Shown here in pieces: positions 2,965 through 18,202 of a stretch of DNA of 64,000 nucleotides. Each line of letters begins with the position of its first letter. Positions within the stretch are counted from its first letter, which is position 1. Both the position numbers and the translations under genes were made by a program. The DNA comes from an uncultured delta proteobacterium (lineage in GTDB: Bacteria > Desulfobacterota > Binatia > Binatales > Binataceae), in assembly GCA_963724765.1 (NCBI GenBank), contig CAVRVY010000004.1, forward strand, positions 192,001 through 256,000, in the 5' to 3' direction. The notes below the pieces were generated by a model that saw only the letters and a list, made by a program, of their open reading frames with translations, searched no databases and was not told where the DNA came from.

Positions 2965-4524
2965 TCAGCGCGACGAGCTTGCGCTCAGGGCGACGAGCTT
3001 GCGCGCATCAAGATAGGAAGTGATCAGCGCTGCGCCGCGCTCCGAAGCCGCTGTCGCCACGTAGCCGTCGGGTCGCACGAGATACACGGCATCGCGCCGC
3101 AGTCCGGACCGATCCATCTCTGGACGCCAGGGAAAAACGTGTAGCGGCAATTTTCGCTCCTCACACAACGTCCGGATTTCCTCCGGGGCGCCGCCGTATA
3201 CATGAACCTGCCAATCAAGCGAGGTCAGCGGAATGAAGTTGTCCTTGACGCCTTCGTCCGTCTTCGCCCACGGCAGACGGTCGCCACCGTGAACCGCGCC
3301 GACACGCCCCTCACTCAAGCTGCTTGCGCGGTAGTTCACCGCCGTCTGTGAGACCGTACGAAACATGAGGAGCCGCACCGACTTGAGCCTGGACAGGAGC
3401 GGGAGCAGAAGCGGCACGATTTGCATTCGCACCCGGCGAGCGACCGCGCCGGGGCTGGTAACGCCGGTAAACGCCCGATCGGTGGTTGCGACCAGGCGCC
3501 GCGCGAAAGCGATTCGCTCCGGCTCGTAGCTCTCCAGCAGCGACCCGTCCGCACGGCCCTTGACGACGGCAGCCAGTTTCCACGCGAGATTGACCGCGTC
3601 GCCGATGCCGGTGTTCATGCCCTGTCCACCCACGGGACTATGAATGTGCGCAGCGTCGCCGAGCACGAACGCGCGGCCCTTACGAAAATGATCGGCGACT
3701 CGATGATACACATGGTAAGTCGAGAACCAGTTCACGCGTTCAACGGCGATGCCCATCCAATCGATTACGCGCTTGCTGACGTCGTTCCAGGAAAGGTTTT
3801 CATGTCGTGGTTGGGTTTCGCGCACTGTGCCGACGAGCCGGGCGCGCCCCTCGCCCTTCAGCGGGAATACGGCCAGGAAGTCCGTCGTTTCCAGATCGAC
3901 GTGCACCTCGCCATTCATCGTCGATCCTTTCGCTTCAACGTCGGCGACGTAAAAAACGTGATCGTACGCTCCGCCCGGGAACCCGATCTCCAGTGCCTCG
4001 CGGACCCTGGAATGTGCGCCGTCGCATCCGGCTATATAGGCCGCCTCGCATTCCTGCGCGGCTCCGTCGGACCGTTTAAGGCGCGCGCGTACCCGACCGG
4101 CCGAATCTTCGAAGCCCAGTAGCTCCGTCCGGCGCTCGACCTCGACGCCGGCCTGGATCAGGCGATCAATCAACAGACGCTCGTGCTCGTCCTGAGGAAA
4201 AATCAGCGCGTAGGGGAACGGGCTTAGTTCGGCGCCCACATCGCCAAAGGCAAGACGTCCGACCTTTTTGCCGGACACCCATAAATTCACGGCGGCGGTT
4301 TTCCGTCCACGCTCGACCAGCGCGTCAGCCAGACCGATTTGGCTGTACAGCTCCAGCGTGCGTGCCTGCACGGCCAGCGCGCGCGACGTCGTCTCCGGCT
4401 CCGCCGCCTTGTCGATGATCCTCACGCGCACGCCCAGCCGCGTCAGCCACAGCGCCAACACCAAACCTGTCGGCCCTGCGCCGACGATGAGGACGTCCGT
4501 GTCGTGCATCGGTGATGTACTCAT
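2965..4524 (-). CDS. FAD-dependent monooxygenase (PheA/TfdB family)
   Basis: GAGPTG, GCDGAHS and GDAAHIHSPVGGQGMNTG motifs. Confidence 0.92.
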   Translation of the reverse strand: MSTSPMHDTDVLIVGAGPTGLVLALWLTRLGVRVRIIDKAAEPETTSRALAVQARTLELYSQIGLADALVERGRKTAAVNLWVSGKKVGRLAFGDVGAELSPFPYALIFPQDEHERLLIDRLIQAGVEVERRTELLGFEDSAGRVRARLKRSDGAAQECEAAYIAGCDGAHSRVREALEIGFPGGAYDHVFYVADVEAKGSTMNGEVHVDLETTDFLAVFPLKGEGRARLVGTVRETQPRHENLSWNDVSKRVIDWMGIAVERVNWFSTYHVYHRVADHFRKGRAFVLGDAAHIHSPVGGQGMNTGIGDAVNLAWKLAAVVKGRADGSLLESYEPERIAFARRLVATTDRAFTGVTSPGAVARRVRMQIVPLLLPLLSRLKSVRLLMFRTVSQTAVNYRASSLSEGRVGAVHGGDRLPWAKTDEGVKDNFIPLTSLDWQVHVYGGAPEEIRTLCEERKLPLHVFPWRPEMDRSGLRRDAVYLVRPDGYVATAASERGAALITSYLDARKLVALSASSSR

Positions 4525-4583
4525 CGTCTAAGTCAGTTCGGGTAAAATCAGTTCGGGTAAAATCAGTCAGGGCGCCAAAGCTG

Positions 4584-5318
4584 TCAGTTGAGCAGGCGGC
4601 CGCCGTCGAGCACCAGCGTCGCGCCGGTGGCGAAGTCGGTGCCCTCGCACAAGAACATCACCGCGCGCGCAACATCTTCCGGAGAGCCCAGCCGCTTGAC
4701 CAGCGTTCCCGCAACCATGCGAGCGGTTTCCTCGTCGCTGGAGTCCTCGGGCGGCATCACGGGCCCCAGCGCGACGCAGTTGACCTGGACCTCGGGCGCC
4801 AGCGCTTTGGCCAGCGCGCGCGTCAATCCGATGAGCCCGCTCTTGGAGACCGTGTACGGCAGGTAATTGTTGTAGGGGCGAATCCCGGCCCAGTCGCCGA
4901 TGTTGACGATTTTGCCCGCGCCCTGACGACGCATCGCCGCGCCCGCGAACTTGGAAAGAAAAAACGGAGCTTTCAGATTCGTGTCGAGGTTGACGTCCCA
5001 GTCGTGCTCGGTGACCTCCTCGAGCGGCTTGCGATAGAAGACCGACGCGCAGTTGACCAGCACGTCGATACGGCTAAACACGCTTAGCACTTCGCTGACC
5101 ATCCGCTCGATCTCGGCCACGCTTTCGAGATTCGCGCCGAAGGCGCGCGCGGCGCCGCCCGTGCGCGCGATCTCAGCGACAAACGATTCGGCCTCGGCGC
5201 GCGAGCGGTTGTAGTGCACCGCAACCGCGGCTCCGCGCTCGGCGAAGTGCTCCGCAATCGTACGGCCCACGCGGCGCGCGGCGCCGGTCACCAGTGCGAC
5301 CTTGCCCTTGAGTTCCAT
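4584..5318 (-). CDS. SDR oxidoreductase, pteridine reductase/FolM-like
   Basis: TGAARRVG (Arg-containing variant typical of PTR1/FolM), HYNRS, YxxSK. Confidence 0.8.
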   Translation of the reverse strand: MELKGKVALVTGAARRVGRTIAEHFAERGAAVAVHYNRSRAEAESFVAEIARTGGAARAFGANLESVAEIERMVSEVLSVFSRIDVLVNCASVFYRKPLEEVTEHDWDVNLDTNLKAPFFLSKFAGAAMRRQGAGKIVNIGDWAGIRPYNNYLPYTVSKSGLIGLTRALAKALAPEVQVNCVALGPVMPPEDSSDEETARMVAGTLVKRLGSPEDVARAVMFLCEGTDFATGATLVLDGGRLLN

Positions 5319-5399
5319 CCGTTAGTGCAGGCTTCCGGCGTGCAAGCGCGATCCGCCGGATGGCTGCGGGGATATTGTTGCGAAGACCGCGGCGGCGGT

Positions 5400-6662
5400 C
5401 TATAGCGCAGCCTTCACCGCGCGCACTAGCGCGAGGTTGTCCGAATGGCCGGTCTTGTGCGCGATGACGTGGCCCAGGATCGGCCGTCCCAGCAGGTAGA
5501 GGTCGCCGATCAGGTCGAGCACCTTGTGGCGCGCGAATTCGTCAGCGAAGCGCAGCGTCGTGTTAACCACCTTCTCGTCGTCGATTAGGATCAGGTTGTC
5601 GAGCCGCCCGCCGCTGGCGAGACCCATCTCGGCCAGCTTGTGGAATTCATGCACGAAGCCGAAGGTCCGCGCGGGAGCGATCTCGCGTATGTAGGCCGCG
5701 GGTGAGGTCAACTCGAAATGCACGCTCTGGCGTCCGATCGGCCGCGGATATTCCAGGGTGTAGTCGACTATGAGGTGATCGGCGGGCTCGACGCGGATCG
5801 ACTCGCCGTTGTTGCCGACCACGATCGGACGCTCGACTTTGACCGGCTCGACCGCGGCTTCCTGCTCTTCCACACCCACTTCGGATATCTGCCGGCAGAA
5901 TTCGATCGCCGAACCGTCGAGCGCCGGCACTTCGTCGTCGGTCTTGATCAGCAGGTTGCTGATTCCCATCCCGTGCAGCGCGGACATCAGGTGCTCGACC
6001 GTGCGTACGGAACGTCCGCCCGCCGTAAGCGTGGTGTTGTAGCCCGTATCGGTGACGTTCTCCAGCCGCGCCGCGATCGCGGTCTCGTCGGCGACCGAGG
6101 AAAAGACGATTCCGAAGCCGGCCGGCGCGGGATGCAGGATCACCCCGGTCTTGAGCCCCGAATGGAGTCCCTGCCCTGCCGCGACCACCGAGCGCACCAG
6201 CGTGCGCTGTTTGAGTCCGGAAATCCCTGCGAGCGGCGTCGGTCGCGGCACCGCCCCGGCGTCAATTGCCGTCGCGCCTGGCATGCGCACGCCGCCTGCC
6301 TCGCGTTCGAGCACGCGTTCGATCGAAGTCAGCAGACCACTGACCGAAAACGGCTTCTCGATGAAGTCGGCGGCGCCAAGCCGGGTCGCGGCGACCGCGT
6401 TCTGGATGTTGCCGTGGCCCGAGATCATGATCACGCGGACCTCGGGCCGCTCGGCCTTGATCCGGCGGAGTAACTCGATGCCGTCGATGTTGGGCATCCA
6501 GATGTCGAGCAATACGAGCGCCGGGTTCTCGCGCGCGATAAGCGCCATCACGCCGGCGGGATCGCCGGTGTCGAGTACGCGAAAGCCCTCGTCGCCCAAA
6601 ATTCCACGGAGCGATGACCGAATCCGCTCCTCATCATCCACCACCAATACGGTCTCGTTCAC
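5400..6662 (-). CDS. lpxC: Receiver (REC) domain fused to UDP-3-O-acyl-GlcNAc deacetylase LpxC
   Basis: Residues ~1-120 are REC (VVDDE, LLDIWMP, ISGHG, FIEKP). After a linker comes LpxC (KQRTL, GLHSG, TVEHLMSA, EVPALDGSA, APARTFGF, RHKVLDLIGDL, KTGH). Confidence 0.93.
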   Translation of the reverse strand: MNETVLVVDDEERIRSSLRGILGDEGFRVLDTGDPAGVMALIARENPALVLLDIWMPNIDGIELLRRIKAERPEVRVIMISGHGNIQNAVAATRLGAADFIEKPFSVSGLLTSIERVLEREAGGVRMPGATAIDAGAVPRPTPLAGISGLKQRTLVRSVVAAGQGLHSGLKTGVILHPAPAGFGIVFSSVADETAIAARLENVTDTGYNTTLTAGGRSVRTVEHLMSALHGMGISNLLIKTDDEVPALDGSAIEFCRQISEVGVEEQEAAVEPVKVERPIVVGNNGESIRVEPADHLIVDYTLEYPRPIGRQSVHFELTSPAAYIREIAPARTFGFVHEFHKLAEMGLASGGRLDNLILIDDEKVVNTTLRFADEFARHKVLDLIGDLYLLGRPILGHVIAHKTGHSDNLALVRAVKAAL

Positions 6663-6731
6663 TATTGTCCTTTGGATAGAATGGTTCGCGCCGATTGAAT
6701 AGAAGGCTGGCGCGCCGGGATGCCCGCGCGC

Positions 6732-8966
6732 CTAGCCGAGAACCTTGGCTGATAGCTGGTCTTTTATCGGAAACTCGAGCACGAATCTACTTCCCCTGGG
6801 CGGGTTGTCGCGCACCCGCACGAAGCCGTGATGGTCACCGACGATCGCAGAGACGATCGCCAGGCCGAGACCGGTGCCGCCCTTGCGGGTGGAAAAGTAG
6901 GGCTCGAAAATTCGCGACCGCAGCGCCAGTGGGATGCCGGGGCCGTTGTCGCCTACCTCCAGCGTGACCACGCCGCTTTGCGCGTCGAGCGCGGTGCGAA
7001 CTTCGATTCGCGGCCGTGCGCCGTTGGGGTTGGCCGTGACGGCGGCGTTGACCGCGTTCTCGAGCAGGTTGACCAGTGCACGCTTGAGCGCGTCGCGGTC
7101 GATCGCGATTTGTGGCAGCGCGGGCGCCAGCGCGACCCCGAAGTCGACGCCCGGGTTGGCGTCGCGAAAGGTCGCCACTGTCTCCTCCGTCAGCGGGTTG
7201 AGATCGCCCGGCGTGGGATTGAGATGCGGCATCCGGGCGAACGCTGAGAATTCGCTCACCAGGCGCTTTAGGTCCTCAACCTCACCGATAATAATGCGCG
7301 TGCATTCGTCGACCAGCTTGGCGTCGCCGCCGGAGCGCGTGGCGAGCTGGCGGCGTAGCCGCTCGGCCGAGAGCTGGATCGGAGTGAGCGGATTTTTAAT
7401 CTCGTGCGCGATCCTGCGGGCGACCTCGCGCCACGCTTCCATCCGCTCGACCTTGGCCAGCTGGCTCACGTCCTCCAGGAACAGTACCGTGCCCAACTCG
7501 CCGTCGCTGTCCTCGCCGAGCGCGCTCGCCGTGACCATCAGCTCGATTTCGCCGCCGCCCAGCGGCTGCAGCTTAATCGAGGAGCGGGCTTCATGGGGAC
7601 GGCGATGCTCGGCGAAAATTTCCTCCAGCGAGTGCGCCAATGCGGGCTGGAACACGGCGCGCCATCCGCGCCCCAGCACCTCTCCCGCCTTGAGCCCGAG
7701 TATCCTCTCCGCATACGGATTGATCGCGGTCACGATACCGTGAGGGTCCAGGCCGACCACGCCCGCGCTGACGTTACGCAGCAGCGTCTCGGTATACGCA
7801 CGGCGGCGCTCAAGCTCGGTCTGTGAAGCACGCAGGTCGGTCGTCATCCGGTTGAACGAGTTCACCAGTTGACCGATTTCGTCGTCGCCGACCGAGGGGA
7901 TTTCGTAATCGAGGTCGCCATGGGCGATCGCTTGCGTGCCTTCGGCCAACAACTTAATCGGAACCGTCACGCTGCGCGCGAGATACATACCAAACCAGCT
8001 CGCCAGCAGCACCACCACCAGCCCAATCAGCATCAGGGCGAGAAAGTAGCTGCGCATGATGGGCTGACGCAGCGTACGCAATTGAAAGTAATCCTCGAAA
8101 GTCTGCGAGATACCGGCCGCGCGCTGCGCCAGGCTGCGTGGCAGGTAATAGTCGACCACCACCGCGCCGGTCACCACGTCGGACTCCGGCGACGAATAGA
8201 TCGGCGCGGTGCCGCGAATCACGTCCGACTTTCCGAAGCGGTCGGTGCGCGTGACCGCGTGGCCGCCGAGTGTTTGCGCCAGCAATGGCGAGTCTGGCGC
8301 CACGCCGATCCCGGTCGGAGTCCTGGGGCTGAGTGCGATCAGCAGAAGACGGCGAGTGTTATCGAAGACCTCGATCGTACCGAGGTTGTAGTCCTGCTGA
8401 CGCTGCGCGACGAAACTTTTCAACTCGGCGCGCCGTTCGGGCCGCAGCAAGTCCTTGGCCGCGACCTCGCCAGCTATTTCGCGCGCGAAGTGGGCTGCGT
8501 TGTTGGCCGCGCTCAGGTAATAGACTTTCGCGATATCGAGCGAGTCGTCGAGTACGCGTTCATATTCGGGATTAAACCAGCTCGCGACGTCGGCGCGCAA
8601 AAACGCTCCCGCGACGATCAGCAGAAACAGACTTGGCACCAGGGCCACCGCGATGAAGCCGAGCACCAGGCGCACCTGGAACTTGGAGCCGATGAGGCCG
8701 CGGCGATGCTCGAAGATGACCTTGGCCAGGTTGCGTCCGACCAGTAGCAGGAGCAGGCCCAGCAGCAGGAAGCTGATGTCGAACAGCAGGATTACGACCA
8801 GGTTGGAGACCAGTGAAGTATGGCGGGTAAGCGGCGGCAGCTCGGTCTGCGCGAGCACGAAGGCAACCAGCACCGTGGCCGCCACACCCACCGCGATAAG
8901 CTCGCGGCGGCGCCGCTTGAGGTCGGCCTGGCGCGTGGAGTCGCGAGCGCTATGGTCACCGGTCAC
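6732..8966 (-). CDS. ntrY: NtrY-type membrane sensor histidine kinase (TM-HAMP-PAS-HisKA-HATPase)
   Basis: AWREVARRIAHEIKNPLTPIQLSAERL H-box; N, G1, F and G2 boxes; N-terminal TM helices and HAMP. Confidence 0.88.
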   Translation of the reverse strand: MTGDHSARDSTRQADLKRRRRELIAVGVAATVLVAFVLAQTELPPLTRHTSLVSNLVVILLFDISFLLLGLLLLLVGRNLAKVIFEHRRGLIGSKFQVRLVLGFIAVALVPSLFLLIVAGAFLRADVASWFNPEYERVLDDSLDIAKVYYLSAANNAAHFAREIAGEVAAKDLLRPERRAELKSFVAQRQQDYNLGTIEVFDNTRRLLLIALSPRTPTGIGVAPDSPLLAQTLGGHAVTRTDRFGKSDVIRGTAPIYSSPESDVVTGAVVVDYYLPRSLAQRAAGISQTFEDYFQLRTLRQPIMRSYFLALMLIGLVVVLLASWFGMYLARSVTVPIKLLAEGTQAIAHGDLDYEIPSVGDDEIGQLVNSFNRMTTDLRASQTELERRRAYTETLLRNVSAGVVGLDPHGIVTAINPYAERILGLKAGEVLGRGWRAVFQPALAHSLEEIFAEHRRPHEARSSIKLQPLGGGEIELMVTASALGEDSDGELGTVLFLEDVSQLAKVERMEAWREVARRIAHEIKNPLTPIQLSAERLRRQLATRSGGDAKLVDECTRIIIGEVEDLKRLVSEFSAFARMPHLNPTPGDLNPLTEETVATFRDANPGVDFGVALAPALPQIAIDRDALKRALVNLLENAVNAAVTANPNGARPRIEVRTALDAQSGVVTLEVGDNGPGIPLALRSRIFEPYFSTRKGGTGLGLAIVSAIVGDHHGFVRVRDNPPRGSRFVLEFPIKDQLSAKVLG

Positions 8967-8969
8967 GGC

Positions 8970-9182
8970 TCAGCGCCTCAGCCAAGCCACGATCAGGCTC
9001 AGCACGATGCTGACTACGATCGAAGTGGTGATCGGAAAGTAGAAGCTGAAGTTGCCGCCCCGTACGTAAATATCGCCGGGCAGCCGCGTCGGTATTGACC
9101 CCGATCCGAAGCCCCATACCGCCGCTCCCAGCACGACCAGTATCAGCCCCGTCACGATCAGTGCCTTCCCTAACGGCGCCAT
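8970..9182 (-). CDS. DUF2905-family small membrane protein
   Basis: RLPGDI..RGGNFSFYFPITTSIVVSIVLS signature. Confidence 0.85.
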   Translation of the reverse strand: MAPLGKALIVTGLILVVLGAAVWGFGSGSIPTRLPGDIYVRGGNFSFYFPITTSIVVSIVLSLIVAWLRR

Positions 9183-9230
9183 CGTCACGTATTCCGCGCG
9201 CATCCGCGCGCGGCCCAGGCGCTGCGTGCG

Positions 9231-11336
9231 CTAGGCGTGCGCGCGCTCCCTTTGCGCGGCCTCACGCGCCTCGCGCGCCTCCTTGACGATCTTTTCGGTG
9301 ACTGGCGGGGGCGCTTCCTCGTAGTGCGAGAAATGCGCCTCGAACGATCCGCGCCCCGAGGTCTTCGAGCGCAGGTCGGGCGCATACTTCAGGATCTCCG
9401 ACATCGGCACCAGCGCCTTGATGACCTGGCTCTGGCCCTTGCGATCCATCCCGAGCACCTTGCCGCGCCGCGCGTTGAGATCGCCGATCACGTCGCCCAT
9501 GCATTCGTCGGGGCAACTCACATCCAGCGCCATCACTGGCTCCAGGATGATCGGCCGGGCTTTTTCGAACGCCGCCTTAAGCCCCATCGAGGCCGCAATC
9601 TGGAAGGCCATGTCGGAGGAATCGACGTCGTGATAGCTGCCTTCGAAAACCGAGACTTTGATGTCCACCACCGGAAAGCCGGCCAGATAGCCCTCGACCA
9701 GCGTGTTGCGCACGCCCTTTTCGACCGACGGGATGAACTGGCGCGGGATCGCGCCGCCGACGATCTCGTCCTTGAACTCGAAACCGCCGCCGCGCGGGAG
9801 CGGCTCTACCTTGAGCCAGCAGTCGCCATACTGTCCGCGGCCGCCTGATTGGCGCTTGTACTTGCCCTGGGCTTCGGCGCGGCCCTTGATGGTTTCCTTG
9901 TAGGGCACCTTGGGCGGCTGAAGTTCAACTTCTACATTAAATTTTCGCTTGAGCTTCTCGACCGTGACCTCGATATGCATCTGCCCCGTGCCCGAGAGGA
10001 TGATCTCGTGGGTTTGCGGATCGCGATGAGTTTCCAGCGCCCGGTCCTCTTCGACCAGGTGCTGCAGCGCCTGTGAGGCTTTCTGCTCGTCGCCCTTGGT
10101 CTTCGGGCGAATCGCAAAGGAGATGACCGTGGCCGGCCGCTCGGGCGCCGGGAAGATGACCGGGGATTTTTCGTCGCACAGCGTGTCGCAGGTCGTGGTG
10201 TCTTTGAGCTTGGCGACCGCAACGATCTCACCCGGCAGCGCGGTTGCGATTGGCGACTGCTTCTTGCCCTCCAGCCGCAGGAGCTGGCCGAAGCGCTCGC
10301 GCACGCCGCGGGTCGAGTTGAGCACCGTAGCGTCGCTTAGGGCGCGGCCCGAGACCACGCGAAAAATCGACAGCTTGCCGGCAAACGGATCGATGACGGT
10401 TTTGAAGACGAAGGCTGAAAACGGCGCCGCCGGGTCGGGCGCGCGCTCGACCGGCTCGCTGTTTGTGCCGCTGAAGCCCTGGCGCGCCGGCCGCACGTTG
10501 GGCGCTGGGAGCAGCGTGTCGATCGCGTCGAGCAACGGCCCGATGCCGATATTCTTAAGCCCCGAGCCGCATAGTACCGGCGTGAGCTTGCCCGCGGCGG
10601 TGGCCGCGCGCAGCGCCGCGCGCAACTCATCGTCCTCCAGCACGCCCTTGTCGAGGTACTTCTCGAGCAGCGCGTCGTCGGTCTCCGCCACGGCCTCGCA
10701 CAGGCGCGTGCGCGCGGTTTCCGCGCGCTCCTTCTGCTCGGCGCTCAGCACTTCCTCCCTGGGTTTGCCACTGGCGTCGGCGTAAATCAGCGCCTTCATC
10801 GCGAGCACGTCGATCACGCCGTTGAACGTGAGTTCAGCACCGATCGGGAGCGTCAGCGCGACTGGATGCGCGTCGAGCGATTTCTCCAGGTCCGTCATCG
10901 CATGGTCAAAGCTGTTGCGTTCACGGTCCAGGCGCGAGACGAAAGCGATTCGCGGAAGGCCAAGCTCGTTCATCTCGGCCCAAATCTTTTCCGATTCGAC
11001 CTTGAGGTCGCCGCCGGCCGTGGCCACGAACACCAGGCTGTCGACCGCGCGCATGGTCGCAAACGAGTCGGGCAGGAACGCCTGGTAGCCGGGAGTGTCG
11101 GCGAGGATGACCTCGTCTTTTTTCCAGTTGTAGTGATGAAACGCCGAGCTGATCGAGATTTTCCGATGCAACTCCTCGGGCTCGAAGTCCATCGCGGCCG
11201 TGCCGTCGTCGGGCCGCCCCTGCCGGGTCAGCATGCCAGCCGTAAACAGCATCGCCTCGGCCAACTCGGTTTTGCCGGTCGCGCCCTGACCGACGATCGC
11301 GATGCTCCTCAGACGTCCGATTTCCTCCACAGCCAT
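9231..11336 (-). CDS. fusA: Elongation factor G paralog (EF-G2 type)
   Basis: Full EF-G domain order; KYKRQSGGRGQYG, GSYHDVDSS, ILEP. G-motifs are divergent (GQGATGKT, RKISI, DTPGY, SRLD). Confidence 0.9.
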   Translation of the reverse strand: MAVEEIGRLRSIAIVGQGATGKTELAEAMLFTAGMLTRQGRPDDGTAAMDFEPEELHRKISISSAFHHYNWKKDEVILADTPGYQAFLPDSFATMRAVDSLVFVATAGGDLKVESEKIWAEMNELGLPRIAFVSRLDRERNSFDHAMTDLEKSLDAHPVALTLPIGAELTFNGVIDVLAMKALIYADASGKPREEVLSAEQKERAETARTRLCEAVAETDDALLEKYLDKGVLEDDELRAALRAATAAGKLTPVLCGSGLKNIGIGPLLDAIDTLLPAPNVRPARQGFSGTNSEPVERAPDPAAPFSAFVFKTVIDPFAGKLSIFRVVSGRALSDATVLNSTRGVRERFGQLLRLEGKKQSPIATALPGEIVAVAKLKDTTTCDTLCDEKSPVIFPAPERPATVISFAIRPKTKGDEQKASQALQHLVEEDRALETHRDPQTHEIILSGTGQMHIEVTVEKLKRKFNVEVELQPPKVPYKETIKGRAEAQGKYKRQSGGRGQYGDCWLKVEPLPRGGGFEFKDEIVGGAIPRQFIPSVEKGVRNTLVEGYLAGFPVVDIKVSVFEGSYHDVDSSDMAFQIAASMGLKAAFEKARPIILEPVMALDVSCPDECMGDVIGDLNARRGKVLGMDRKGQSQVIKALVPMSEILKYAPDLRSKTSGRGSFEAHFSHYEEAPPPVTEKIVKEAREAREAAQRERAHA

Positions 11337-11477
11337 AGCGTTTGCTCCTGGAGATGTTTTCTAGTTGCGCCTGGCCCCCTCGCGCGACGTCCTGCGCGAT
11401 GCTCTGCGACGCCCTGGACGACCCGCGACGGCTGCGATAGCCGCGGTGCCGATGCTCGCCATACTTTGCACCCTACG

Positions 11478-12278
11478 TCAATCGTACGCGCCCTCGATAC
11501 TTACGTCACCCGCCAGTATCCGTACGATTCGTCCCTCGGCCTCCAGCAACAGCGCGCCGTCCGGGCCGATTCCCCGGACCGTCCCGCCGATGCGGCTTTG
11601 ACCGTCGAGCACCGTGACCTGCCGGCCGGTCAGCGCCGAATAGCGCTCCCAGACGGGTCGCATGGCGGCGAACCCGCCGTCCATAGCCTCCATATAGCGG
11701 GAGTCAAGTCTGGAAAAAAGCTGGCCGGCGAGCTCCACCCGGTCACATGGCCTGCCCGTCGCCGCCATCAGCGAGGTCGCTCGCTCCCGCAGATCAGCCG
11801 GGATATCTTCGGGGGCGAGGTTGAGATTGAGGCCGATTCCCAGCAGGACGCAGACCAGGCGATGGCGCGAGTCGGTCACCGCCTCGGCGATCAGCCCGCC
11901 GGCCTTGCGCCCGCCAAGCCATATGTCGTTAGGCCACTTGAGCGCGACGATTCGCGGCGCGACCATCTCCATCGTTTCGGCCACCGCGACGCCGGCGACC
12001 AGGCTGAGCAGCGGGGCCTCGGCTACCGGCATCTCGGGGCGCAAGATGAAGGTGCCGTAAAAGTTGACGCCCGGCGGCGAATGCCAGGTCCGGCCCATCC
12101 GCCCCCGCCCCGCCGTCTGCCGCTCGGCGATCACGACCTCGCCATGAAGCGCGCTGCGGGAGGCCATCTCCGCCGCAGTCTGCTGCGTGGATTCCAAATC
12201 CTCAAAATAATGCACGCGCCATCCGATCGACCCGCTGCGGCGGCCGGCTTCGGCTGGGCGATAGGGGTTGTCAGTCAC
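11478..12278 (-). CDS. birA: Biotin--[acetyl-CoA-carboxylase] ligase (no HTH)
   Basis: QTAGRGRMGRTWHSP, LKWPND, KAGG and GIGLN motifs. Confidence 0.93.
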   Translation of the reverse strand: MTDNPYRPAEAGRRSGSIGWRVHYFEDLESTQQTAAEMASRSALHGEVVIAERQTAGRGRMGRTWHSPPGVNFYGTFILRPEMPVAEAPLLSLVAGVAVAETMEMVAPRIVALKWPNDIWLGGRKAGGLIAEAVTDSRHRLVCVLLGIGLNLNLAPEDIPADLRERATSLMAATGRPCDRVELAGQLFSRLDSRYMEAMDGGFAAMRPVWERYSALTGRQVTVLDGQSRIGGTVRGIGPDGALLLEAEGRIVRILAGDVSIEGAYD

Positions 12279-16109: not shown

Positions 16110-17012
16110 TTGAAACTCTCGATCATAATCGCGACTCACGCGCGTCCCGACGCGCTCGAACGCCTGCTCGGTAGCCTGGCGCCCCAACTCGGCGGCACTG
16201 CCAGCGAAGCTTCGCACGAAATCCTCGTGGCGGAAAACGGCACGCCCGCGCCTTCGATGCTGTCCACGACAGCGCCGCCGCTCGAGCATCTGCACGACCC
16301 GCGCCCGGGCAAATGCCGAATCCAGAACGTCGCCATCCGCCACGCCGCAGGCGATATCATCGTATGCCTTGACGATGACCTCGTCGCCGCGCCGAACTAC
16401 CTCGCCGAGGTCGAGCGCTTTTTTACCGAGCATCCGGGATTCGCCGCGATGAAGGGGCGCATCCTGCCGGCCGAGGACCCAACGGCCAAGGTTGGCCCCG
16501 AGGCCGCGGCATGGCTCGACCTTCCGATCGTTGACCATGGCGAGGAAGTTATCGAGGTGCGCGGCGTGCTGGGCGCGAACATGGCGTTTCGCGCCACTGC
16601 TCTCGCGCGCGTCGGGCTCTTCGACGAACGCCTGGGGCCGGGAGCGGCCGGCCATGAAGAGGAGACCGAAATGTCGGCGCGCCTTGCACGCGCCGGATTC
16701 AGGATCGGTTACGCGCCGCGCGCGCTGGTCTACCACGACGTGGACCCGAGCCGGGCCGATCGCGCCCGCTTTCTGCGCATCGCGCGCGAGCGCGGACGAT
16801 GCCGGATGATCCACGAATCGCATCGCGCGTTTCCAGTGATCGCGGACAACGCGATAGCGGCTCTACGAGTATGGACCGCGCGGCTCGCGGGCGCCGGACC
16901 GCAGCGCCTCGCACGCGAGGAGCGGCGTCTGGCGGTCGCGCGAGGGATGCTCGACGGACTGCGGTCTAATGGATTTCGTTCCTGCGGATTGCGCTCTTGC
17001 GGCCGCGGCTAG
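16110..17012 (+). CDS. Glycosyltransferase family 2
   Basis: LSIIIAT, CLDDD, GANMAFR and FDERLG motifs. Confidence 0.9.
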   Translation: MKLSIIIATHARPDALERLLGSLAPQLGGTASEASHEILVAENGTPAPSMLSTTAPPLEHLHDPRPGKCRIQNVAIRHAAGDIIVCLDDDLVAAPNYLAEVERFFTEHPGFAAMKGRILPAEDPTAKVGPEAAAWLDLPIVDHGEEVIEVRGVLGANMAFRATALARVGLFDERLGPGAAGHEEETEMSARLARAGFRIGYAPRALVYHDVDPSRADRARFLRIARERGRCRMIHESHRAFPVIADNAIAALRVWTARLAGAGPQRLAREERRLAVARGMLDGLRSNGFRSCGLRSCGRG

Positions 17013-18130
17013 TTTTTTAGCGAATCGACTATCTCGAGCAGCCTGGCGCAATAGCCACTCCACGGATGGGCCTCGGCCGCGGCGCGCACGATATCCTCGC
17101 ACTGATGCTCGGTCTGCAACAATGCCGTGAGGCGCTCGGCAATCTCGGCGGAGTTGGCCGGATCTTTCACGACGAACGGACGCATCGTGGCCGGCAGCAG
17201 TTCTGCGACTCCCGATTGCGCGCTGACCAGCACGCCGAGTCCGCCGGCCATCGCTTCCATCACGACATTCCCGAAGGGCTCAAAGAACGAGGGCAGCGCG
17301 AACGCGTCGGCGGCATGCAGCAGTTGCTCGATTTGGCCCATCGCGCCCAGAAAGCGCACCCGCGAGCCGACTCCAAGCCGATGGGCGAGGCGGATATAGC
17401 GGAGCGCCGAGCGGTCGGTGCCGGCGACCAGCAGATACGGATGCGATTTGAGCGCAGGCCACGCTTCGAGCAGCGGCCCGAGTCCTTTGCGCGCGAAACC
17501 GTTGCCCACGAACGCGACCACCGGAGTACCGGTTTCGACTTCGAACATCTGCCGAAAGCGCGCGCGCTCGGCCAGGCTGGAGGGATGGAAGCGTTCGAGG
17601 TCGACTCCATTATACAGCGTCACCGCTTTGTCCGAGTCGAGGGCGAACTCCTCGATTAGCTGGGCGCGAACCAGTTGCGAAACCGCGATCGCCCGGCGCA
17701 TGGTGGGAGATTTGAAGGCCGCCCGTTCGACTATAATTTGCGCGCGATGGTACGGCCGCAGGCGCATCGCAGCCGCCGCCCAGTTCCCGCGCCATCGCTG
17801 TGCCGCCCGCAGATAGGCGATGTGTGCGCCGCCGCCCGAGCGCAGGATGTCTGCGCCCACCGCCCGCGCAAAACTCAGCACCAGTTCGGCACCGTCGCGC
17901 CGCGCCTGCGCCGGCGCCTCCCAGGCAAAACGCATCAATCGGAACGGACCGCTCGGCCATCGCGAGCCAACCTGTACCACGCGCCATCGCTGCGAGGGTC
18001 CGCGCGCTTCAGCGGTATAGACGGTTATGTCGTGTCCCGCTTCGGCAAGACATTGCGCGGTGACGATCAAATCGCGCTCGGTGCCGCCGCCGCCCGGGTC
18101 GAAGCGCCGCGCGATCAATGCTACGCGCAT
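17009..18130 (-). CDS. Glycosyltransferase family 4 (WaaG/RfaG-like)
   Basis: GGTER, YNGVD, RKGL, EPFGNVVMEAMA. Start set at MRVALIARRF. Confidence 0.9.
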   Translation of the reverse strand: MRVALIARRFDPGGGGTERDLIVTAQCLAEAGHDITVYTAEARGPSQRWRVVQVGSRWPSGPFRLMRFAWEAPAQARRDGAELVLSFARAVGADILRSGGGAHIAYLRAAQRWRGNWAAAAMRLRPYHRAQIIVERAAFKSPTMRRAIAVSQLVRAQLIEEFALDSDKAVTLYNGVDLERFHPSSLAERARFRQMFEVETGTPVVAFVGNGFARKGLGPLLEAWPALKSHPYLLVAGTDRSALRYIRLAHRLGVGSRVRFLGAMGQIEQLLHAADAFALPSFFEPFGNVVMEAMAGGLGVLVSAQSGVAELLPATMRPFVVKDPANSAEIAERLTALLQTEHQCEDIVRAAAEAHPWSGYCARLLEIVDSLKN

Positions 18131-18139
18131 AGCGGTCCA

Positions 18140-18202
18140 GCCAGCGCGCTTCGCGCTTGTGCCAGCGCGCATCGCGCTTGTGCCAACGCGCTTCGCGCTT
18201 GC
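18140..18202. repeat. 21-bp tandem repeat x3 with internal palindrome
   Basis: GCCAGCGCGCTTCGCGCTTGT / GCCAGCGCGCATCGCGCTTGT / GCCAACGCGCTTCGCGCTTGC. Confidence 0.9.

Follow-up and report, generated by a model that had tools for sequence, protein, structure and literature searches.

A receiver-LpxC fusion beside an NtrY-like kinase in Binatia, likely a two-component system with LpxC as its response regulator

The window analysed here is a stretch of 64,000 nucleotides from the genome of an uncultured member of the Binataceae (class Binatia). It carries on its reverse strand two neighboring genes, one for a sensor kinase and one in which a response-regulator receiver is fused to LpxC, the UDP-3-O-acyl-GlcNAc deacetylase. 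By open reading frame (ORF) and Pfam analysis, the kinase gene (6732..8966, minus strand) encodes an NtrY-like sensor histidine kinase of 744 aa and the fused gene (5400..6662, minus strand) a protein of 420 aa made of receiver, linker and LpxC. The spacer between the kinase stop codon and the GTG start of the fused gene at 6662, read from the sequence, spans 6663..6731 on the same strand, the 69 nt already counted in the original prediction, which a model had made from the letters of this stretch. AAAGGA stands 6 nt ahead of the GTG, and ORF reading of the frame that follows reveals no stop or frameshift inside it. This arrangement is likely best explained by a two-component system whose response regulator is the LpxC enzyme itself.

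The fused protein has three parts. The receiver (REC) domain, NtrX-like and assigned from Pfam, NCBIfam and PDB matches and an AlphaFold2 (AF2) model, occupies aa 1-121 (6300..6662, minus strand). A Gly/Ala/Pro-rich and poorly conserved linker follows at aa 122-149 (6216..6299, minus strand), marked by its predicted local distance difference test (pLDDT) values and its ratio of nonsynonymous to synonymous substitution rates (dN/dS). The LpxC domain, assigned from Pfam, TIGR00325, PDB alignments and Foldseek, takes up aa 150-420 together with the stop codon (5400..6215, minus strand). A simple and weak scan, covering the sigma-70 consensus and intrinsic terminators only, returned no terminator-like and no sigma-70-like site in the spacer, so that co-transcription of the two genes is plausible. 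An imperfect GC-rich inverted repeat (GCGCGCGGG-CAT-CCCGGCGCGC, 6708-6731) lies directly after the kinase stop; it has no T-run and was not called by the terminator scan.

The receiver matches Response_reg at residues 5-114 (Pfam, 1.9e-29), and its best NCBIfam model is NtrX (NF051870; 121.6 bits, residues 4-121), in keeping with the NtrX-like receiver first proposed. With the AAA+ and helix-turn-helix (HTH) parts missing, this score falls far short of the cut-off of 600 for the whole protein: Pfam finds neither in the 420 aa, and the NtrX combination of REC, AAA+ and Fis-type HTH is absent. By domain content, then, the fused protein is a descendant of the NtrX family and not a member of it. 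The best solved-structure matches of the receiver in a PDB search are 4d6x ('Fis family protein') and 5m7n ('Nitrogen assimilation regulatory protein'), both of which we take to be Brucella NtrX. In the AF2 model the receiver adopts the (beta-alpha)5 fold, with strands at residues 4-8, 28-32, 49-53, 76-81 and 99-102, helices at 12-24, 35-45, 61-71, 86-94 and 107-119, and block-mean pLDDT of 85-95.

All five conserved receiver residues named in the original prediction are present, namely the acidic pair D9 and D10, the phospho-acceptor D53 (in LLDIWMP; codon 6504-6506), S81 and K103. Their conservation was followed in 180 proteins with a complete receiver and then a complete LpxC (137 of at most 470 aa, 3 of 471-640 aa and 40 of more than 640 aa). 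The phospho-acceptor is D in 178/180, with N and S once each; D10 is D in 179/180, D9 is D in 177/180 and E in the other three, position 81 is S in 169 and T in 11 (S or T in 180/180), and K103 is K in 179/180. W55 (codon 6498-6500), in the DIWMP motif two residues past the phospho-acceptor Asp, is Trp in 180/180, a striking invariance at a position that presumably tunes the rate of receiver dephosphorylation.

The LpxC part is complete, as first read from its EH and HKxLD motifs and catalytic His. PF03331 matches residues 152-416 nearly end to end (profile 1-266 of 268; 298.7 bits against a cut-off of 27; 5.4e-89), and TIGR00325 (lpxC) scores 249.4 bits against a cut-off of 187.25, its match stopping at model position 273 of 297. 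The best solved-structure matches are LpxC entries titled P. aeruginosa (1.7e-56). Foldseek superposes this part of the AF2 model on the P. aeruginosa, A. aeolicus and E. coli enzymes with target-normalised TM scores of 0.83-0.95 and root-mean-square deviations of 1.3-2.3 A, and the model has the two-domain beta-alpha-alpha-beta sandwich fold of LpxC. The residues E223-H224, H379-K380-x-x-D383, D387 and H406 are in place, and each of these seven is kept in 180/180 fused proteins. In the alignment with P. aeruginosa LpxC, E223, H224, H379, D383 and H406 fall on the Zn-ligand and catalytic positions. We take the His/His/Asp ligands and the catalytic Glu and His to be E78, H79, H238, D242 and H265 in E. 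coli numbering. The domain ends directly after its last helix, 4 residues past the LpxC match; the C-terminal tail found in LpxC of E. coli and P. aeruginosa is absent.

The fused gene is also the only lpxC found in its genome, a point that the original prediction had asked about. The assembly (5.4 Mb, 97% complete, 5% contamination) holds a single PF03331 match, together with LpxB and LpxD, and this sole-LpxC status beside LpxB and LpxD indirectly supports LpxC deacetylase activity in the fused protein. Across a class sample of 61 genomes (17 families, 44 genera), one LpxC locus was found in 61/61, and in 59 of them it lies in an open frame of at least 411 aa, which by its length is too long for a stand-alone LpxC. 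The two remaining loci are that of G240, cut by a contig end, and that of G232 (C5:524273-525078), split over several frames in a genome that is 78% complete, where the gene may be broken or the assembly in error. All six class members (6/6) in a sample of the phylum, described below, gave full-length REC-LpxC matches.

An obvious concern is that an assembly or frame error joined separate ntrX-like and lpxC genes, the more so as the window genome is a metagenome-type assembly with some contamination. In a search of 5.8 billion proteins, however, PF03331 and PF00072 occur together in 119 of the 120 best matches, the sole exception being a 341-aa protein that covers 81% of the query; the closest matches are assigned to Candidatus Binataceae, Binatus or Binatia. 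Among species-representative genomes a scan gave 79 loci, of which 49 are full-length fusions, several of them from complete chromosomes, and another 3 are fusions truncated at a contig end; 4 have the LpxC part only and 23 the receiver only (Sphingomonas-type NtrX). The junction itself (linker nt 6216-6299) is bridged without differences by Logan contigs of two runs, X1 record 3 (6067-6340) and X2 record 23 (6190-6377), which come from different studies; X1 may be the source sample. Sequence support for the junction and recurrence of the architecture elsewhere were among the checks first suggested, and both came out in favor of a real fusion. Hundreds of independent assemblies of different sources contain this two-domain frame, which puts it far beyond chance. 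With the uninterrupted frame and the class-wide sample added to these observations, we consider an artefact ruled out and give it practically no credence.

Linker and overall shape were read from the AF2 model, computed from a 42-sequence alignment (mean pLDDT 88.2, predicted TM score (pTM) 0.87). The only residues with pLDDT below 50 are 122-147, a Gly/Ala/Pro-rich and predicted disordered stretch of 26 aa that corresponds to the in-frame linker of about 25 aa described from the sequence. An internal start that would give free LpxC was considered and rejected as unlikely, since the candidate codon, Met136 in the linker, lacks conservation. By Foldseek, LpxC alone accounts for a query-normalised TM score of only 0.59-0.63 of the model. 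Set against the pTM of 0.87, and given the way in which pTM is computed, this would imply that the receiver is confidently placed against the LpxC domain in the predicted structure.

The kinase encoded upstream has, by Pfam, HAMP (aa 329-379), PAS (393-503), HisKA (512-579, with the H-box AHEIKNPL) and HATPase_c (623-735) domains. NtrY_N matches with 33.9 bits against a cut-off of 23.2 and covers profile positions 13-151 of 291 only. The N-terminus is a membrane region, its transmembrane segments judged by eye, with an extracytoplasmic stretch of about 175 aa in which sCache_3_2 alone appears, at a sub-threshold E of 0.024 that serves as a hint only. The kinase and Sphingomonas-type NtrY share 27-33% identity in long alignments. 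The kinase is the only NtrY_N match in the window genome, where 14 full-length NtrC-type regulators are present and no protein reaches the NtrX cut-off. By its position it is a cognate-looking partner of the receiver. Searching the 79 loci with the window kinase (tblastn) placed an NtrY-like kinase directly upstream in 45 of the 49 full-length fused loci, at identities down to 38%. Two of the exceptions, L045 and L047, have no upstream DNA; the other two, L053 and L054, have 4.4-4.7 kb of it, with glycosyltransferase genes and no kinase. In these two (L053:882-5775, L054:1302-6086) the REC-LpxC genes, of 452 aa, stand about 1 kb after large family-4 glycosyltransferase genes.

The surroundings of the pair are partly conserved. 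The order birA, elongation factor G, kinase, REC-LpxC and a pteridine-reductase-like short-chain dehydrogenase/reductase (2965-12278 in the window) is kept in many Binataceae loci (L002-L030); the reductase is absent from several of them, and an FAD monooxygenase comes next only in the closest relatives of the window locus. Two glycosyltransferase genes (family 2; GT4/GT1) lie at 16110-18172, about 7 kb from the kinase. The first 41 kb are otherwise housekeeping, with genes for tRNA synthetases of classes I and II, for UvrB and UvrC, and for a ComEC-like protein.

Taken together, these features suggest a mechanism in which the kinase would sense an extracytoplasmic or membrane cue and phosphorylate D53 of the receiver. 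Held on a flexible tether, the 26-aa linker, and probably lying packed against LpxC, the receiver would then alter LpxC output according to its phosphorylation state, by an allosteric or steric route in the manner of CheB. Lipid A flux would thereby be set without the FtsH/LapB/YejM circuit of E. coli, which this control would replace. We lean towards the core of this proposal, phosphorylation of D53 by the kinase and a change in LpxC output through intramolecular contact as in CheB. Whether signalling activates or inhibits cannot be read from the sequence. Inhibition on signalling would be suggested by analogy, because alphaproteobacterial NtrYX represses lpxC.

The main rival keeps the phosphorylation step and makes it control the amount of LpxC: the receiver would be a phospho-dependent handle for degradation or for an adaptor, in place of the C-terminal FtsH degron. 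For the E. coli enzyme it is the level that is regulated, by way of FtsH and LapB; in alphaproteobacteria Lon may have this role (PMC12444477). The window LpxC has no C-terminal tail, and RssB and CpdR models are among the NCBIfam matches of its receiver (93 and 63 bits), far under their cut-offs. RssB and CpdR are regulators that work as such a handle. The high two-domain pTM, however, favors a packed allosteric arrangement over a free tag, and the locus has no conserved protease or adaptor gene as a neighbor. We regard this reading as unlikely; control of activity and of amount could also operate together.

Direct control of the fused enzyme also has to be considered against the wider distribution of the fusion. 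It is present, among the matches listed, in at least 48 of 201 evenly sampled genomes of the GTDB phylum (27 short, 14 long and 7 intermediate forms), and 21 of these 27 short forms lie outside the class of the window; the counts are lower bounds, with 429 more matches beyond those listed. We examined 40 loci outside Binatia (20 short, 13 long, 7 intermediate), and a receiver-coding stretch lies upstream of LpxC on the same strand in 40/40. Judged by this spread, the fusion is widespread and old. The synteny with ntrY that had been proposed for checking holds in the public-genome loci described above but is much looser here: an NtrY-like kinase adjoins the fused gene in 6 of the 40 (L084, L108, L109, L110, L113 and L114), and 29 of the other 34 carry at least 3.9 kb upstream of the LpxC-coding part. 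Tight kinase linkage is thus a feature of Binatia and of some long forms. At the non-linked loci the neighbors vary, including a radical SAM gene with SIR2, a glyoxalase and, in L121, a different kinase. In three genomes of other classes (L090, L096 and L120) the orphan REC-LpxC gene adjoins a murI-like Asp/Glu racemase; in L096 and L120 it is also beside HSP20 and a sigma-70-family factor, and in L090 beside OmpA-family and BamD-like genes.

The company of such envelope genes at several orphan loci (murI-like racemase, OmpA, BamD-like, glycosyltransferases) fits a reading in which the phosphorylated receiver acts on other proteins or steps (LpxA, LpxD, FabZ or LPS (lipopolysaccharide) transport) and LpxC is a mere carrier; nor does any of our results indicate which receiver surface is in use. 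Direct control of the fused enzyme is the more economical reading, no third partner gene is conserved, and the model puts REC against LpxC, as far as the pTM goes. We therefore hold the carrier role to be very unlikely.

The origin of the fusion from an NtrX-type regulator can be followed in forms that still exist. L049 and L050 have, downstream of a kinase of this kind, a single ORF of 736-737 aa that holds Response_reg, Sigma54_activat, AAA_lid_14 and LpxC. An exhaustive HMMER search of 1.84 billion cluster representatives, with Pfam run on 42 of the top matches, extended this to a graded series of architectures. Long fused proteins of 680-750 aa consist of REC, a sigma-54 AAA+ domain in degenerate form, in some cases an HTH, and LpxC: REC-AAA+-lid-HTH_8-LpxC occurs in P0132 and P0134, and REC-AAA+-lid-LpxC in 13 proteins. 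REC-HTH_8-LpxC is represented by P0136, a REC-long linker-LpxC form by P0129, P0147 and others, and the REC-short linker-LpxC form is that of the window protein. AAA+/lid-LpxC without REC appears in P0148, P0155, P0160, P0161 and P0203, which are possibly 5'-truncated calls. Some of the long forms bear the name 'NtrX' at JGI; at NCBI they are named LpxC, from metagenome-assembled genomes of Nitrospinota and 'Deltaproteobacteria'. Their AAA+ module is, from its sequence features, degenerate, because Sigma54_activat scores are low (29-141 bits against 245 bits in the unfused L055 regulator, introduced below) and, in an alignment, the GAFTGA loop is missing and the Walker B glutamate mostly lost, whereas the L055 regulator has both.

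We then placed 99 LpxC domains in a quick IQ-TREE phylogeny, from which rows with fewer than 255 aligned residues and every second stand-alone row had been dropped. One branch (Shimodaira-Hasegawa-like approximate likelihood ratio test, 96) splits 42 stand-alone and LpxC-FabZ proteins from 57 rows, namely all 55 fusions and two proteins called 'alone' that may be truncated (P0154, P0171). Within the fused clan, long, middle and short forms are interleaved, and the label 'long' needs 12 changes on the tree. The Binataceae rows (window, L009, L026) stand apart from the other Binatia (L031, L032, L046) and beside the stand-alone clade, which could be a long-branch or rooting effect of the quick tree.

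Close pairs illustrate what separates long from short forms. P0138 (735 aa) and P0136 (491 aa) share 73% identity in residues 1-127 and 78% where 395-728 of the former align with 150-483 of the latter, and about 267 AAA+ residues of the former correspond to about 22 residues in the latter; the pair P0122 and P0129 has the same pattern of AAA+ loss. We read these patterns as repeated, clean, in-frame loss of the AAA+ module, since it would be implausible for an AAA+ module to have been inserted several times over at one site. The supported order of events puts the fusion first, giving a REC-AAA+(-HTH)-LpxC protein of a kind still extant, from which AAA+ and HTH were apparently lost more than once. 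The original prediction had suggested that the fusion may have arisen by deletion of the AAA+ and HTH parts between adjacent ntrX and lpxC genes. Descent from NtrX and loss of these parts are supported, with a correction to the order: fusion preceded loss, as the REC-AAA+(-HTH)-LpxC forms indicate. The case is a rare and well-resolved one of a transcription factor turned stepwise into a regulated enzyme, with an unusually clear evolutionary trail.

A regulator that has shed its AAA+ and HTH parts might simply be in the course of being dismantled. The receiver would then be a structural remnant without regulatory phosphorylation, a constitutive module that dimerises or localises LpxC, for example bringing it to the membrane or to partner enzymes. 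Outside Binatia the majority of fused genes lack an adjoining kinase, and a LapB homologue of meningococci reportedly exerts its effect through the localisation of LpxC (PMC12444477). Yet the phosphorylation residues are kept in 177-180 of the 180 proteins, at identities to the window protein down to 32%, and a pure dimerisation module would not need them. Ten pairs drawn from five close relatives gave, by the Nei-Gojobori method, dN/dS values of 0.030 (receiver), 0.078 (LpxC) and 0.49 (linker). With a value below that of the enzyme domain, the receiver is by this measure the most constrained part of the fused protein and therefore not a decaying remnant. Orphan response regulators are common and still phosphorylated, which also takes weight from the missing kinases. 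A purely structural receiver is in our view quite improbable.

Phosphorylation-dependent control of LpxC by its own receiver is thus the reading we retain, and all parts of the earlier interpretation that can be tested on sequence are supported. Several points nevertheless weigh against it. Phosphotransfer, and an effect of phosphorylation on LpxC, are steps that we infer. The packing of REC against LpxC is a model-level prediction. The kinase link is not universal for the family, the fused gene being mostly an orphan outside Binatia. Two genomes, G034 (C11:39482-40762, C33:20153-20971) and G199 (C52:6925-7716, C232:4652-5455), hold both a fused and a stand-alone LpxC. Contig pieces from the RNA run X19 match parts of the fused gene only, at 90-99% identity (27 of 31 at 90-95%); they derive from relatives and are therefore no sign of expression in this organism. 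As an observation on copy number, class Binatia has a single LpxC copy, unlike G034 and G199.

A full-text literature search, with subscription-only papers and Galperin's response-regulator surveys outside its reach, found no paper on a receiver-LpxC fusion. The view that this way of controlling LPS flux is uncharacterised thus agrees with the searchable literature. Domain databases no doubt list the REC-LpxC architecture, and our claim of novelty goes no further than the absence of a study in what we searched. The 2025 JBC review 'The regulation of lipid A biosynthesis' covers FtsH/LapB, Lon, transcriptional control by NtrYX and ChvGI, and the meningococcal LapB homologue Ght, and it calls alternatives to E. 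coli-type LpxC control 'still emerging'; its text does not contain 'receiver', 'fusion', 'fused' or 'domain architecture' (PMC12444477). How bacteria beyond E. coli and its close relatives set LpxC activity is an open question. If the proposed mechanism is true, this would be the first two-component system acting directly and specifically on LpxC, with the REC domain as a natural allosteric handle on the enzyme.

Two of the known systems nearest to this one act on transcription. With alphaproteobacterial NtrY/NtrX the window system shares the kinase order NtrY_N (here a partial match), HAMP, PAS, HisKA, HATPase and a receiver whose best family and solved-structure matches are NtrX. It differs in that NtrX is a REC-AAA+-HTH protein controlling the transcription of dozens of genes, whereas the window protein has no AAA+ or HTH and its output is an enzyme. 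NtrYX has been linked to lpxC and LPS levels in R. sphaeroides and C. crescentus; loss of NtrYX in R. sphaeroides raises the lpxC transcript 8.8-fold, with LPS also up, and no NtrX binding site is reported at lpxC (Lemmer et al., 2020, PMC7240162; PMC12444477). REC-LpxC may explain envelope phenotypes of NtrYX mutants. For the sigma-54 response regulator DVU2934 of D. vulgaris a single target was mapped, lpxC, and in S. fumaroxidans lpxC adjoins an operon reported as orthologous to the DVU2931/DVU2934 system (Rajeev et al., 2011, PMC3333781). Compared by its published description, that system is likewise a dedicated two-component system for lpxC in the former Deltaproteobacteria; it differs in working transcriptionally through a GAFTGA-bearing AAA+ regulator, the window protein having no DNA-binding or sigma-54-contacting part.

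The adjacency seen in S. fumaroxidans is also found at a Desulfobacterales locus (L055:5974-11429), where lpxC is joined, as separate genes, by those for a DUF4390 protein, an NtrY-like kinase and a sigma-54 response regulator with GAFTGA, the kinase 35% and the REC 46% identical to those of the window. By gene content it is the unfused counterpart of the window system. The fused protein, judged by its relatives, stems from a regulator lineage that controls lpxC transcription elsewhere. The series from separate genes through the long fusion to REC-LpxC, together with the lpxC links of alphaproteobacterial NtrYX and of DVU2934, would make LpxC control an old core function of the NtrYX lineage. 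A fuller version of the proposal, in which this holds, the kinase reads periplasmic LPS or outer-membrane load, and a complete post-translational loop replaces FtsH/LapB/YejM, is tentative, and we think it may well not hold in full.

Set beside that E. coli circuit, which is proteolytic and needs a C-terminal degron, the window LpxC differs in having no degron tail. In the window genome the LapB equivalog NF008757 reaches 30 bits at best against a cut-off of 363, no YejM DUF3413 was found, and there is no match to the LapB Zn-ribbon (PF18073), a model that is unspecific and also matches Gram-positive control genomes, so that the equivalog result is the stronger negative of the two. The LpxC/FabZ protein (NF009667) is another natural LpxC fusion, with seven such proteins among the representatives. 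Its FabZ partner is C-terminal and metabolic, whereas the partner in the window protein is N-terminal and from signalling; the window protein scores 211.8 bits against the NF009667 cut-off of 465 and has no C-terminal FabZ. The tree places the LpxC/FabZ proteins among stand-alone LpxC and not with the REC fusions.

Response regulators with enzymatic output are an established class, comprising among others CheB (REC-methylesterase), PleD and WspR (REC-GGDEF) and RpfG (REC-HD-GYP), and in CheB the unphosphorylated receiver blocks the active site. Our literature search found no report of LpxC as the output domain of a response regulator. Like these proteins, the fusion in the window joins a receiver to an enzyme by a flexible linker. 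They are signalling enzymes, whereas the output here is the Zn deacetylase of an essential biosynthetic pathway, so that the class of response regulators with enzymatic output would gain a member whose output is an essential, drug-targeted biosynthetic enzyme.

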